Of a stretch of DNA of 64,000 nt, positions 796 through 49,946 are shown in pieces; the first letter of the stretch is position 1, and each line of letters starts with the position of its first letter. The stretch is from positions 8,091 to 72,090 of the IMG/VR virus record IMGVR_UViG_3300046804_001132; one strand, given 5' to 3'. Source of the stretch: a virus. The notes beneath the pieces were generated by a model that was given only the letters and a program-made list of their open reading frames with translations, ran no database searches and was not told where the DNA came from. A program made the translations under genes and the position numbers.

Positions 796-2400
796 ATGGA
801 AAATAGTATGGATATAAATAAAGTTTCTTGGTCCACAGATAAGCAAAACATTAGACTATCAATGCCAATTGCAAAGGTAGATAAGGAACGTCGTATCGTT
901 TCTGGTTTTGCAACACTAGACAATGTTGACAAGCAAGGCGATATTGTTCCAGCAGAAGCAAGCATCAAGGCTTTTGAAACTTTCCGTGGCAATCTTAGAG
1001 AAATGCATCAGCCAGTTGCTGTTGGCAAGGTTGTTTCATTCAAAGAAGATAAGTATTTTGATCAAGAATCAAAGAAGTTTTATAATGGCGTTTTCGTTTC
1101 TGCTTATGTAAGCAAGGGTGCTCAGGATACATGGGAAAAGGTCCTTGACGGCACCCTCACAGGATTTTCTATCGGTGGTAGTATTGATAAGGCCGATGAT
1201 ATTTATGATGAGAATCTAGATAAGCCCATTCGTGTAATCAAAGAATATCAACTTAATGAACTATCCTTGGTTGACAATCCTGCAAACCAGTTTGCTAATG
1301 TTGTTAGCATTGAAAAAGGCGTAGCAACTGGATATCTTACCAAGGCAGTAATTGAAAATATCTTTTGGTGTAATTCTGATGACATTGTTCGTCTTTCAGG
1401 AGACAATTCTTCTGCTTGCCCCCAATGCGATAAGTCAATGTATAATATTGGTTTTGTTGAAAACAATGACATAGATAAGGCAAATGTTATTAAGTCAATT
1501 CTTCTTGAAACAAAGAGAAAAGAGTTATCAAAGTCAGTAAATGAGAACGCTTATGTCAAGTGTGATAACTTTTACGGCAAGGTAATTCAAATGATCGAAA
1601 AGGGATCAGCAAGAATTTCTAACGACGAAATGGCTCTTTTTGCAAAAGAAAATGACCCTATTGCCGTTATTCGTGTATATTCACAAAAAGAAGGTACAAT
1701 TGTACCAACGAGTCGTCGTGTTATTAAGAATGTTTCTTCATTAGAAACAATTAACACGATAAATAAATCGCAGGTAAAGGAGGTAAGCAAAATGGAAGAC
1801 ACAAATATTGAACCCACCTCTGTAGATGAGGTTGCCAAGTCAGACGTTATTGTTGTTGATGAATTCGATACAGATGTAACAAAGGCTGTAAATATGAATC
1901 AAGAGCAAATGAATCCTGAACCACAAACTGCATTCGCTGTTAAGGAAAATGCAGAGACAGAAATGGATGATGCAGGAGACAATCTAGCAACAGAGGCCGA
2001 TCCAAAAGCCGATGCCGCTGAAGATGCAGCAGAAGGCGAAATGGATGATCCAAATATGAAGGCAATGGGGCCAGGAGGAAAGGGTTATGACGCAGAACTT
2101 CATGCCACAAAGTCAATTCTTTCAGATGTTACTGTTGCCATTTCTAGCCTTGCCGAAACAATGAAGTCCATTAACGCTAAGATTGAGGACCTTAGCAAGG
2201 AAGTTACTGGAGTTCGTGGCGAGGTAAAGGAAGTAAAGGATAACTATGATAATTTTGGTAAGCGTGTAGACGCAGTAGAAAAGGATACCGCTTTCCGCAA
2301 GTCTGGCGATCTTGGCGAGATCGTGCAGGAAAATCCAGTAATTATGGAAAAATCCCTATGGGACGGTCGTTTCCTCACAAATGCCGACCTATTTAAATAA
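796..2400 (+). CDS. Prohead protease / scaffold polyprotein
   Basis: N-terminal HK97-type protease motifs (VSGFAT, REMHQ, GFSIGG, ELSLVDNPAN), CPQC knuckle, acidic linker, C-terminal coiled coil; start could be 796 or 808. Confidence 0.85.
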   Translation: MENSMDINKVSWSTDKQNIRLSMPIAKVDKERRIVSGFATLDNVDKQGDIVPAEASIKAFETFRGNLREMHQPVAVGKVVSFKEDKYFDQESKKFYNGVFVSAYVSKGAQDTWEKVLDGTLTGFSIGGSIDKADDIYDENLDKPIRVIKEYQLNELSLVDNPANQFANVVSIEKGVATGYLTKAVIENIFWCNSDDIVRLSGDNSSACPQCDKSMYNIGFVENNDIDKANVIKSILLETKRKELSKSVNENAYVKCDNFYGKVIQMIEKGSARISNDEMALFAKENDPIAVIRVYSQKEGTIVPTSRRVIKNVSSLETINTINKSQVKEVSKMEDTNIEPTSVDEVAKSDVIVVDEFDTDVTKAVNMNQEQMNPEPQTAFAVKENAETEMDDAGDNLATEADPKADAAEDAAEGEMDDPNMKAMGPGGKGYDAELHATKSILSDVTVAISSLAETMKSINAKIEDLSKEVTGVRGEVKEVKDNYDNFGKRVDAVEKDTAFRKSGDLGEIVQENPVIMEKSLWDGRFLTNADLFK

Positions 2401-2427
2401 TTAAACATACACAGGAGGTGAAAGTCA

Positions 2428-3522
2428 ATGTCACAAGATATTTTAAAGAATCAGCCTGGTCAGAGCGGAGAGTACGGAGGAACAGCCCCTGGGTTGTACC
2501 AAGGTCAAGGTTCCGTTGCATCAGGTGGTATCGGTACAGTTACCGATCCCGCAGCAGGTATTTTGGGAAACATCCCAAATGCTAATTACGGAGATGATAC
2601 TCCAATCAGTATCAATCCCGTAGGTGCTCCAGGTGGTATTCTAAACCCAGAACAGAGCCGTCGTTTTATCGACTACGTTTGGGATGGCACAGTTCTCGCA
2701 CAAGACGGTCGCAAGGTAACAATGCGTGCAAACACGATTGAACTTGAGAAGGTCAATGTAGGAGAGCGTGTAATCCGTGCCGCTGCTCAGGCAGATGGTG
2801 CTTACACAAACGCTGGTGCAACCTTTACCAAGGTTGATCTTACAACCAAGAAGATTCGTCTAGATTGGGAAGTTTCAACTGAGGCATTGGAAGATAACAT
2901 CGAAGGTAGTGCAGTAGAGGATCATCTAGTTCGTTTAATGACAAGTGCATTTGCAAACGACCTTGAGGATCTCGCCATCAATGGCGATGGTGGAGCCGAT
3001 CCATTCCTAGGAATCATGAACGGTTTCGTCAATCAAACTACAGGTGGTGACTCACATGAGGCCATTGTCACTGTTACAAACAACCAGTGGACCCCAGAAG
3101 TTCTTCAGTCAATCATCAATGCACTTCCTCGCCGTTACCGTGCAGTCCGTAGCGGTTTGAAGTTCTATGCAGGCACAGATACCTTTGCTGGTATCGTTGC
3201 AAGCAACGGAACTCTTGCCGATTCAGTCTACACATTCGGTGCTCGTGATACATATCTGTCAGGTGCAGATCAGGCAATCGGTAATGCTCGCATTACTCGC
3301 GCCCTTGGTCTTCCCGTCATGGAAGTTCCTTACTTCCCAGCAGATTATGTAGAACTCACATTCCCACAGAACCGCGTATGGGGCTTCCAGCGCGATATCT
3401 CTGTAAATCGTGAGTACCGTCCAAAGAAGGACACCATCGAATACACAGTATTCGTTCGTTTTGGTATCGCTTGGGAAGAATTGGATGCAATTGCTTACGC
3501 AGATGCAGCCTCTGATGCCTGA
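2428..3522 (+). CDS. Major capsid protein (HK97 fold)
   Basis: GGILNPEQSRRFIDY, EALEDNIEG, DLEDLAINGD motifs; strong RBS AGGAGGT; follows scaffold; terminator downstream. Confidence 0.9.
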   Translation: MSQDILKNQPGQSGEYGGTAPGLYQGQGSVASGGIGTVTDPAAGILGNIPNANYGDDTPISINPVGAPGGILNPEQSRRFIDYVWDGTVLAQDGRKVTMRANTIELEKVNVGERVIRAAAQADGAYTNAGATFTKVDLTTKKIRLDWEVSTEALEDNIEGSAVEDHLVRLMTSAFANDLEDLAINGDGGADPFLGIMNGFVNQTTGGDSHEAIVTVTNNQWTPEVLQSIINALPRRYRAVRSGLKFYAGTDTFAGIVASNGTLADSVYTFGARDTYLSGADQAIGNARITRALGLPVMEVPYFPADYVELTFPQNRVWGFQRDISVNREYRPKKDTIEYTVFVRFGIAWEELDAIAYADAASDA

Positions 3523-3545
3523 TTAGATAACTGAAATATACGGCG

Positions 3546-48603: not shown

Positions 48604-49184
48604 TGATTAATCAACAGATGATCATTGGTTCCAGTTTCGTTTTTTCAAATTGGCCCACGGCAGTAGATCCTGGTGGAGCAGTTGAATCAATTTATGGTAC
48701 TCCACAACTAGGATTTTGGAAGAGACATTATCCATACTACTTTGCTGACAATGTTCCTGGACTTATTGGCGCAACTCCAGATTCCTCTTCAGTAGATACT
48801 GTATTTAGTTTTAGTCAAAATGTTGCAAATAATTTTAGTTTAATGTGGACTGGATATCTTCAGGCTCCTGCAACTGGGGCATATAAATTTAAAACTGTTA
48901 GTGATGACTGTTCATATTTTTGGATTGGTACAGACTCCATAACAAACGTAGGTATATCAAATGCAGACGTTAATAACGGCGGTTTACATGGAACAACTGG
49001 TGTAGAATCTGTTACTCCTGTTCAACTTACTGGTGGACTATATTATCCAATCAGGGCAATGTTTGGAGAACAAGGTGGAGCGGAAACATTCTATATGGAA
49101 TGGAACTATAATAATACTTCATGGGTTCCATTCAACATGGACTATGCTCGTCATAATGCTGACAATACTTTTGACGGCTACTAA
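48603..49184 (+). CDS. PA14/GLEYA carbohydrate-binding domain protein
   Basis: WTGY..AP.TG.Y.F...SDD.S..WIG...NNGGLHG...YYPIR..FGE.GG. Confidence 0.8.
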   Translation: MINQQMIIGSSFVFSNWPTAVDPGGAVESIYGTPQLGFWKRHYPYYFADNVPGLIGATPDSSSVDTVFSFSQNVANNFSLMWTGYLQAPATGAYKFKTVSDDCSYFWIGTDSITNVGISNADVNNGGLHGTTGVESVTPVQLTGGLYYPIRAMFGEQGGAETFYMEWNYNNTSWVPFNMDYARHNADNTFDGY

Positions 49185-49205
49185 TTATAGTGCTATAATT
49201 TAATC

Positions 49206-49946
49206 GTGAACCTATATGACATGTTGGCGCAGCCAGAAAAAGAATTTCATGATTCCCTTGTTAATATTGCAAAAAAGTATGGTCCAATAGACCAAAATCA
49301 TTCTGGCATTTGGGTAGGGTATGTCCCAGCAGAACAAAATGAGGATGCTGAAATTGGCGTGATGTGCTGCAACTGTTCAATGTATATGGATAATGGTGGG
49401 TGCATGATTCTTTCATACAAGGTACAAGAGGCAGCCGTTTGTAGGCTTGCCGCAATCCCAGATGAACTTGTTAAGCCAGAGGTAGATGAAGTGACAAAGC
49501 AGGCTCCCTGTTGGGATGGATATGTTCAAAGAGGAATGAAGCCTGGTAAAAATGGACAAATGGTTCCTAACTGTGTTCCTGTCACAAATAAGGCAGATGA
49601 TGGTCACTATCCAAATGCTGGCATGAAGGCTGCTGCTCGTAGGGCAATTGCTTGGAAAGAGCAGGGTAAGGCAAACGGAGCAGGTACTCCAGTAGGATGG
49701 ACAAGAGCACATCAAATTGTAAATGGAGAAAGACTGTCTCTTGATACAGTAAAGAGAATGTATTCCTTCTTCTCTAGGCATGAGGTTGACAAAAAGGGTA
49801 AGGACTGGAATAATAGTTCTAATCCCTCTAATGGAAGAATCATGTGGGAAGCATGGGGTGGCGATGCAGGATTTGCATGGTCACGATCAATTGTAAATAA
49901 AGAAGAAGCCAAGAAGGTTTGGCAAGACTCACCATTCTCAAGATAA
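49206..49946 (+). CDS. Multi-module putative capsid-internal protein
   Basis: Cys module (CCNC..C..C), CWDGY...VPNCVP module, GTPVGW.RA...RMYSFFSRH...WGGDAG module; ends VWQDSPF. Confidence 0.6.
   Translation: MNLYDMLAQPEKEFHDSLVNIAKKYGPIDQNHSGIWVGYVPAEQNEDAEIGVMCCNCSMYMDNGGCMILSYKVQEAAVCRLAAIPDELVKPEVDEVTKQAPCWDGYVQRGMKPGKNGQMVPNCVPVTNKADDGHYPNAGMKAAARRAIAWKEQGKANGAGTPVGWTRAHQIVNGERLSLDTVKRMYSFFSRHEVDKKGKDWNNSSNPSNGRIMWEAWGGDAGFAWSRSIVNKEEAKKVWQDSPFSR

Follow-up and report, generated by a model that had tools for sequence, protein, structure and literature searches.

A scaffold-like C-terminal peptide on unrelated accessory proteins of a probable freshwater actinophage lineage, a candidate docking motif for the phage head

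Introduction

Why should the end of a prohead protease-scaffold recur at the ends of small proteins that are otherwise unrelated to it and are encoded 37 to 47 kb away? The question is raised by a 64,000-nucleotide stretch of viral DNA (the window), which corresponds to bases 8091 to 72090 of the linear viral record IMGVR_UViG_3300046804_001132 (G000; 72,090 bp). Because relatives in the same lineage reach approximately 105 kb with direct terminal repeats (G006), this record probably covers about two-thirds of a genome. A sequence-only reading of the window had noticed a W-x-G-x-F peptide at the C-termini of the protease-scaffold and of several dispersed proteins, and had interpreted it as an address tag by which the phage packages a variable set of proteins into the head for delivery at infection. 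The analysis reported here supports a conserved, modular peptide that is common to the protease-scaffold and to unrelated proteins, three of which are linked to head proteins by gene fusions in other phages, while the mechanism had been overstated.

Results

The motif is concentrated at C-termini

All 5 C-termini given in the sequence-only reading read as written. Among 117 greedily called open reading frames (ORFs; 23,243 amino acids (aa)) of the record, W-x-G-x-F occurs 4 times, each time 6 to 8 residues before the stop. The 4 carriers are the protease-scaffold, 2 small proteins (39286 and 42263, named by the first base of their genes in the window) and a phosphatase-like protein of the HAD superfamily; a fifth protein, 49206, has a homologous W-x-D-x-x-F variant (Table 1). 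Some of the called ORFs overlap tRNA genes and are spurious, which leaves the motif count unaffected, and the 444 six-frame ORFs of at least 40 aa contain the same 4 copies and no further one. The number expected in the called ORFs is approximately 1.0 overall and approximately 0.08 within their last 20 residues.

Given that the motif was picked after inspection, we used a corrected test based on 230 gapped three-residue patterns taken from the last 20 residues of the scaffold, of which W-x-G-x-F alone is common to at least 3 other C-termini. When rarity was taken into account, 3 of 1000 shuffles gave a minimum P as low as the observed one. Raw maximum counts of at least 3 were reached in 728 of 1000 shuffles, and the signal is therefore carried by the rarity of tryptophan. 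Enrichment at C-termini relative to shuffled termini, a check proposed along with the original observation, extends to nine related records, in which 20 of 29 copies lie within 10 residues of a C-terminus (9 of these 20 in proteases); 200 shuffles gave a mean of 0.5 and a maximum of 3 C-terminal copies, and the reversed motif, F-x-G-x-W, is C-terminal in 0 of 6 cases. The nine records are kin, so that these counts are not independent. A DNA repeat underlying the tails was considered and rejected: the DNA agrees only where the codons force it, and the free codon positions differ. With codons differing wherever possible, the signal therefore lies at the level of the peptide.

The tail is a constant feature of the protease-scaffold

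The protease-scaffold matches the Pfam families Peptidase_S78/S78_2 and phrog_9427 (head maturation protease; E-value (E) 2e-119). It contains the motif once in its 534 aa, 8 residues from the end, encoded at 2359 to 2373. We kept homologues from 80 IMG/VR loci, and in the 70 with a readable complete C-terminus the tail K-S-x-W-G/D-G-R/S-F-L..D-L-F is present in every case. These 70 proteins range from 419 to 566 aa in length and are 43% to 73% identical, and the tail is the best-conserved part of their variable scaffold region. On the scaffold side, the conservation that had been named as a check of the address-tag idea is thus borne out. Among cultured relatives, the protease of Streptomyces phage Mildred21 ends with the same core (..KWGGHFLSVSDIK), and that of Rhodococcus phage Peregrin ends in an F-x-G-x-F-D-P version.

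The docking partner of the tail is presumed to be the HK97-fold capsid protein, which is 62% to 76% identical in 56 related loci. No copy of the motif is present in the Gly-rich N-terminal region of this coat protein, and PDB sequence searches with the capsid protein and the protease-scaffold found no solved relative of either.

The accessory carriers are unrelated to each other

The domains of the accessory proteins recur, in many orders, as modules of longer mosaic proteins. We refer to them as M1 (the 39286 domain), M2, M3 and M5 (parts of 49206), M4 (PF11160-like), M6 (DUF5872) and M7 (the 42263 domain). M4 is also the N-terminal module of a carrier of the DUF5872 type, and residues 266 to 309 of the protease-scaffold weakly resemble it (E 4e-4).

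In the 39286 protein, M1 (which matches the N-terminus of the mosaic protein P0041 with E 7e-16) is joined to the tail by a linker that goes from approximately 55 to approximately 12 residues, about four-fold, among its orthologues in G001 and G006, with W.G.FFPR kept. In the 42263 family, the domain stops at ..LLPxxW, and 3 of 6 aligned homologues have the tail cleanly appended as 15 further residues; the protein itself matches phrog_80 (head maturation protease) at profile positions 534 to 584 of 607. For the HAD protein, all Pfam HAD families score below their cut-offs and PDB profile matches have E > 0.1, the best indication being phrog_415 (polynucleotide kinase; E 2.4e-8). All 19 aligned homologues share its residue W119 without exception. 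The tail that the sequence-only reading had described for this protein is present as a full W-x-G-x-F in the 3 closest homologues, but the remaining 16 end in ..K-K-F-W plus 2 to 10 residues.

The variant tail of 49206 (..AKKVWQDSPFSR) contains WQDSPF at 49920 to 49937. Stand-alone homologues of its M5 module end in ..EKVWQGTAFDLRK, ..AWEGSAFNR or ..VWFDSPFSFRKAD, and relatives encode a further carrier of 122 to 133 aa that corresponds to the C-terminal half of 49206 and ends in ..EKVWQGTAFDLRK; its description as a variant was right, as the protein is a diverged member of the tailed set. Another carrier in relatives, of 227 to 284 aa, combines the Cys motif with a DUF5872-like stretch and ..KSIWxGAFDP...

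Orthologues of 39286 and of the HAD gene retain the tail both in the closest relative (G001) and in the complete relative (G006), and in G001 the 42263 orthologue retains it as well. For the accessory proteins too, then, conservation of the tail in orthologues, across variable linkers, was found as had been anticipated, though some homologues are without it. Overall, tails occur on non-homologous carriers (M1, M7, HAD, M5 and DUF5872 proteins), with 15 credible distinct W.G.F tails (16 by regular expression, one of them likely false) and 27 distinct W.G..F tails.

The gene just 3' of the HAD gene (43061 to 43837, plus strand) encodes a 258-aa protein without a Pfam or PHROG match that ends in ..HKTIWKELRVSGQEI; its homologue in G006 (103176 to 103883) ends in ..HKSIWKEFAISHIDNTV. 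This K-S/T-I-W-x-x-F/L ending may be a shortened tail variant.

In other phages the modules are fused to head-assembly proteins

A tblastn search with the 42263 protein gave matches in 19 records, 4 of them in capsid or head maturation protease genes and 1 in a portal gene; of the rest, 12 are annotated as hypothetical and 2 are unannotated. In Gordonia phage DalanDe, M7 forms the extreme C-terminus of the 1633-aa capsid maturation protease gp27, which adjoins the capsid gene, and one longer 42263 homologue carries Phage_Mu_F. For the 49206 protein, 18 of 39 matching records have the match in genes annotated as capsid/head, portal/head morphogenesis or prohead/maturation protease. M5 is located at the N-terminus of S-CBS1 gp04 (836 aa), encoded directly 3' of the portal gene, and inside the gp11 prohead protease of halovirus HGTV-1. 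The lake actinophage DSL-LC01 has adjacent capsid maturation protease genes (WJZ48513 and WJZ48514) that together hold M5, M7 and M2, and the prohead protease of Pontimonas phage phiPsal1 has M1- and M5-like modules at its start. A tblastn search of phage records with the 39286 protein gave no match.

Judged by these sequence relationships, the domains of 42263, 49206 and, more weakly, 39286 are tied to head-morphogenesis proteins, and we regard the modules as passenger domains of head-assembly polypeptides in many phages. In the window they are stand-alone genes 37 to 47 kb from the protease and not covalent parts of a head polypeptide.

Internal copies lie at module junctions

At E <= 0.001 we found 173 longer homologues of 42263, and the following counts refer to the best 120 of these 173. 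The motif, as W-x-G-x(1,2)-F, is located in the last 20 residues of 60 proteins, mostly DUF5872 and M7 fusions ending in ..WSGSIFDLNPFVK, and is only internal in 13. The regular expression leaves 47 unmatched, some of which have a one-residue-shorter form, KSIWSSFDP, and others different C-terminal extensions. The internal copies are found exactly where a tailed unit (M1 or M5) precedes another module, as in M5-WQGSAF-M7 and M1-WAGSAF-M3. Given this position at module junctions, the peptide is best described, at the sequence level, as a linker-borne linear motif that is usually but not necessarily terminal. The strictly C-terminal placement in the original proposal therefore stands for all 4 copies of the record but not for the mosaic proteins, and possibly not for G006, where a copy may be N-terminal.

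This homologue of 42263 in G006 (L181 2984-3250) would begin with MDNIWKGMF.., placing W-x-G-x-F at residues 5 to 9. Its ATG lies 6 nucleotides after a TGATATAAT site, just 3' of a tRNA gene, which suggests a leaderless start, and its N-terminal flank resembles the junction ..FWGGTFDNSFAKRDY.. of fused homologues.

Other endings were seen as well. Approximately 20 of the longer homologues (P0001, P0011, P0041 and others; L253 2942-4210) end in ..(L/I)FKNMPxxAKRxNTTGN.., and a few others in ..GDSRFEKFM; such endings may represent other tags or additional small domains. Five fragments carrying such alternative tails hold no protease, and one of them has an adjoining M5 gene with a W-x-D-S-P-F tail. 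The IMG/VR contigs with relatives of the tailed fusion P0105 measure 44.7 kb at most, too short to reach the protease.

Genome context and promoter-like sites

The gene order is portal, protease-scaffold, capsid, head-tail and tail genes (with a 2132-aa tape measure), replication module, terminase and, 3' of the terminase, a run of small genes with tRNA genes. The tailed accessory genes belong to this last part, on the same strand as the terminase gene, and have the same order in the related fragments G026 and G030. Streptomyces and Rhodococcus phages of approximately 130 kb are the closest annotated phages; their capsid proteins are 37% to 44% identical to that of the window, which has a GC content of 40%. 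The WhiB-like gene, located between tailed genes, and promoter-like sites placed for leaderless starts fit an actinobacterial host, and the lineage is probably one of freshwater actinophages.

The 11 tRNA genes of the window are located at 35450 to 50024 and 62720 to 62871, nine of them interspersed with small genes including the tailed ones, and this scatter resembles that in Streptomyces phage relatives. The same run holds auxiliary genes for an IMP dehydrogenase/GMP reductase (51246 to 52286; E 1.5e-93), a glycosyl hydrolase family 10-like protein (44970 to 45806) and a PA14/GLEYA-domain protein (48603 to 49184). Upstream of the window, between ribonucleotide reductase and the portal region, the record encodes a 1211-aa protein (L261 3211-6846) without a Pfam or PHROG match, whose homologues (1154 to 1268 aa) have a conserved C-terminal ..W-S-x-x-x-x-x-P-V. 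It may be a large head or ejection protein.

The tailed genes had also been linked to the structural genes by similar promoters of the form TG-N-TA(T/A)AAT. We counted 19 TG-N-TAWAAT sites against 10.7 expected, and they also precede terminase-region, tRNA-region and metabolic genes. That link has to be dropped, since the sites are generic extended -10 elements found before genes of all kinds. The position of the site before 42263 suggests a leaderless start. Between 22767 and 52526 on the plus strand, sites end exactly 6 nucleotides before the starts at 25408, 39613, 42263, 44104, 47960, 49206 and 52533, a spacing that points to widespread leaderless transcripts, as usual in Actinobacteria.

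Table 1. Genes and promoter-like sites discussed in the text, with positions in the window.
Feature	Position	Strand	Description
Prohead protease-scaffold fusion, 534 aa	796..2400	+	N-terminal S78-type protease, acidic/coiled middle, C-terminal tail ..EKSLWDGRFLTNADLFK
HK97-fold major capsid protein, 364 aa	2428..3522	+	Pfam Phage_capsid, E 2.6e-10; Gly-rich N-terminal region of approximately 70 aa
Terminase large subunit	36759..38549	+	phrog_17415, E 5e-11; phrog_2699, E 4.5e-6
39286 protein, 102 aa	39286..39594	+	Module M1 (MPWxI..ALYASE), long polar K-rich linker, tail ..QDNFWNGSFFPRNNP; motif 39559-39573
WhiB-like protein	40839..41156	+	PF02467, 48.8 bits, over family cut-off; between tailed genes
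Extended -10-like site TGGTAAAAT	42248..42256	+	Ends 6 nucleotides 5' of the 42263 ATG
42263 protein, 93 aa	42263..42544	+	Module M7 (..AMPDGSFPI..RRHIISRARxLG..LLPxxW), 15-residue tail ..RKFNWSGSFSPFNKG; motif 42509-42523
HAD-superfamily phosphatase-like protein, 129 aa	42546..42935	+	DIDGT at residues 6-10; tail ..GKAIWHGAFVKDEYL; motif 42900-42914
49206 mosaic protein, 246 aa	49206..49946	+	M2, Cys motif M3 (CW.GY..GMK..G..VPNCVP), M5 (phrog_2859, E 9e-31)
Similar extended -10-like site	49191-49199		Before 49206
Similar extended -10-like site	38869-38877		Before the 38894/39286 unit

Discussion

The reading that we favour, and to which we would assign about half of the total probability, is that of a portable docking peptide that copies the coat contact of the scaffold C-terminus and recruits passenger modules into the procapsid. 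The scaffold C-terminus would, as judged from other tailed phages, keep the scaffold attached to the inside of the HK97-fold coat while the procapsid assembles, through a docking motif of the form (K)-x-hydrophobic-W-x-G-x(1,2)-F, after which D/S-P or D-L is often found. The passenger modules, which elsewhere are covalent parts of prohead protease, portal/MuF and capsid-fusion polypeptides, would here be made from separate small or mosaic genes 3' of the terminase, each passenger polypeptide bearing the scaffold-like peptide once or more on a flexible linker. The peptide would thus replace the covalent linkage in bringing a module into the assembling procapsid, from where the module could leave the head into the host along with the DNA. 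What the sequences themselves show is the motif with its enrichment, its conservation and its modular gain and loss, together with the fusions in other phages; we infer the contact between scaffold tail and coat, the use of the same site by the accessory tails, and packaging and delivery. More tentatively, and with somewhat less confidence than an even balance would express, the data may reflect a natural form of cargo loading for a DNA-packaging HK97-fold capsid, with a position-independent peptide of 7 to 10 residues, mix-and-match delivery and tail dialects of sub-lineages, proposed to be W-x-G-x-F-x-P, W-x-G-x-x-F-D-L and K-K-F-W. A position-independent peptide would let any protein ride, from modules once fused to the protease to, even, a HAD phosphatase.

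A number of results weigh against the docking peptide. In a stricter test, a position matrix derived from 18 foreign protease tails and used to rank 21,956 sequence windows placed the 42263 tail 5th and the HAD tail 7th, with the 39286 tail outside the top 15. Since the matrix misses this third accessory tail, what the accessory tails have in common with the scaffold is the W-x-G-x-F core plus an upstream lysine and not the whole scaffold tail. Scans of the whole genomes of the two cultured relatives, Mildred21 (131,976 bp) and Peregrin (133,006 bp), found the tail on the protease and no accessory tail. Among 17 related records with a protease, 9 have no accessory tail (most records without one being fragments); the protease-bearing G013 has a doubtful regular-expression match only, and G021, at 94% completeness, a single accessory tail. 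In G006, the 42263 homologue stops at the domain boundary without a C-terminal tail, and the accessory region of this complete genome, which has terminal repeats, extends across its ends. No fusion of the HAD protein to head proteins was found, and its conserved tryptophan may belong to the protein's own fold. Compared directly, the 39286 protein and the phiPsal1 protease show no significant similarity, the link existing only via intermediate sequences. The internal copies at module junctions would suit a linker or a processing signal as well as a docking motif. Finally, we rejected the argument for promoter co-regulation as uninformative, the sites being generic, and the promoters say nothing on timing.

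Processing is the main alternative, one that we consider unlikely, if worth taking seriously. The prohead protease would recognise, or cut at, K-S-hydrophobic-W-x-G-x-F, separating modules and clipping the scaffold near its C-terminus, and the free-standing tails would be remnants or clipped pro-peptides of proteins that are still head-associated. In herpesviruses, cleavage at the maturation site frees the scaffold from the coat. The 13 proteins (of the best 120 of 173 longer homologues) with the motif exactly at module junctions fit such a signal, yet other junctions in the same proteins lack it, and many proteins have the motif only at their very end, where a cut would remove 3 to 9 residues to no obvious purpose. 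Likewise, the scaffold copy, 8 residues from the C-terminus, is part of the same polypeptide as the protease, but it is the only copy in those 534 aa, and there is none in the Gly-rich N-terminal region of the coat, the expected place for maturation cleavage. The T4 targeting sequence is itself cut off by the prohead protease, according to a paper that cites Mullaney and Black (PMC9024508); set against this, two large hydrophobic anchors around a glycine would be more typical of a docking peptide.

It is rather improbable that the peptide binds a partner other than the coat, such as the portal, the protease domain, a phage hub protein or a host chaperone or protease, in which case the tailed proteins would be co-regulated or co-localised and not necessarily encapsidated. 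The surroundings of the tailed genes, where tRNA genes occur with WhiB and small genes as is typical of regions for host takeover, and a HAD enzyme without a head link would agree with this. However, the sole essential carrier of the motif is the protease-scaffold, at a position where scaffolds contact the coat, and fusions of the carrier modules to head proteins recur in other phages. We think it very unlikely that the motif is a functionless linker relic, kept by descent after modules were shuffled out of protease-linked polyproteins: highly mosaic modules, and a possible N-terminal copy in G006 that looks like the leftover flank of an upstream module, would be in keeping with a relic, but the motif is conserved next to linkers that vary in both length and sequence, occurs also on a HAD enzyme that is unrelated, and uses different codons in its copies, and the same core is found unchanged on all 70 scaffold homologues. 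That short peptides coincide by chance is hardly credible. The motif was indeed chosen after looking, and raw counts of at least 3 for three-residue patterns are reached in most shuffles, but the rarity-aware corrected test leaves only 3 of 1000; moreover, all 4 copies of the record are C-terminal, and the motif is kept in orthologues and recurs on further families in relatives.

How would a docking peptide of this kind compare with known systems? The T4 internal proteins (IPI-III and Alt) are diverse and share only a capsid targeting sequence (CTS) that takes them into the prohead, with action after injection presumed (PMC3012670), and P1 DarB has an N-terminal targeting signal (PMC9024508). 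As with the CTS, a short peptide is the only thing common to the otherwise unrelated accessory proteins of this phage. The T4 and P1 signals are N-terminal, that of T4 binding the scaffolding core and being cut off by gp21, whereas the present peptide is C-terminal or located at module junctions, resembles the C-terminus of the phage's own protease-scaffold, is known from sequence alone, and belongs to a siphovirus-type relative of actinophages. A closer parallel in position is given by the 80alpha scaffold and SaPI1 CpmB, which have a common C-terminal 16-residue helix-and-hook (RIIK) that binds the same coat site (PMC5644958). In our case the core K-x-hydrophobic-W-x-G-x-F matches the phage's own scaffold end, in the core only, and no RIIK-like sequence is present in any tail of this lineage. 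CpmB is a satellite-encoded alternative scaffold that changes capsid size, whereas the carriers here are small enzymes and modules of the phage itself. Polyvalent proteins, as outlined by Iyer et al. 2017 (PMC5512222), consist of small modules fused to MuF, portal or prohead protease genes and are predicted to travel in the head. M1, M2, M5 and M7 are fused to such head genes in other phages; in contrast to the polyvalent type, the modules here are detached from head genes and carry a scaffold-like peptide instead.

The sequence-only reading stated that no description of such a system was known for phages of this kind. This cannot be upheld for the principle, which has already been described for the T4 CTS, P1 DarB and SaPI1 CpmB. 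What is new is the form: in a siphovirus-type lineage, a scaffold-like peptide, C-terminal or linker-borne, is carried by an enzyme and by detached passenger modules that belong to the phage itself. Literature searches that covered main texts and only part of the subscription journals gave no description of this motif, nor of a scaffold tail shared with accessory proteins of the same phage. Duda et al. in 2013 reportedly found that the C-terminal tail of the HK97 gp4 protease suffices to bring the protease and fused foreign proteins into proheads, with the use of engineered fusions; we know of no description of natural sharing of this tail by other phage proteins. Encapsulins are HK97-fold shells that load unrelated cargo in a modular fashion through a short terminal peptide on a flexible linker. 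They are DNA-free cell compartments with a different peptide consensus and without a protease-scaffold. The present system resembles them in its HK97-fold shell (Pfam Phage_capsid) and in a terminal peptide on variable linkers, and differs in the presence of portal, terminase, tape measure and tail genes.

If the docking reading is true, this would be the first natural case found of mimicry of a scaffold C-terminus by a phage's own accessory proteins, and it would sit between the N-terminal signals of T4 and P1, the satellite-encoded CpmB and the loading peptides of encapsulins. It would account for the way in which small modules that shuffle fast get into the head without fusion to the protease, and would provide a short peptide for loading proteins into HK97-fold shells. 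For these abundant uncultured phages, with their many unknown genes, the tail would mark which of the encoded proteins are injected.

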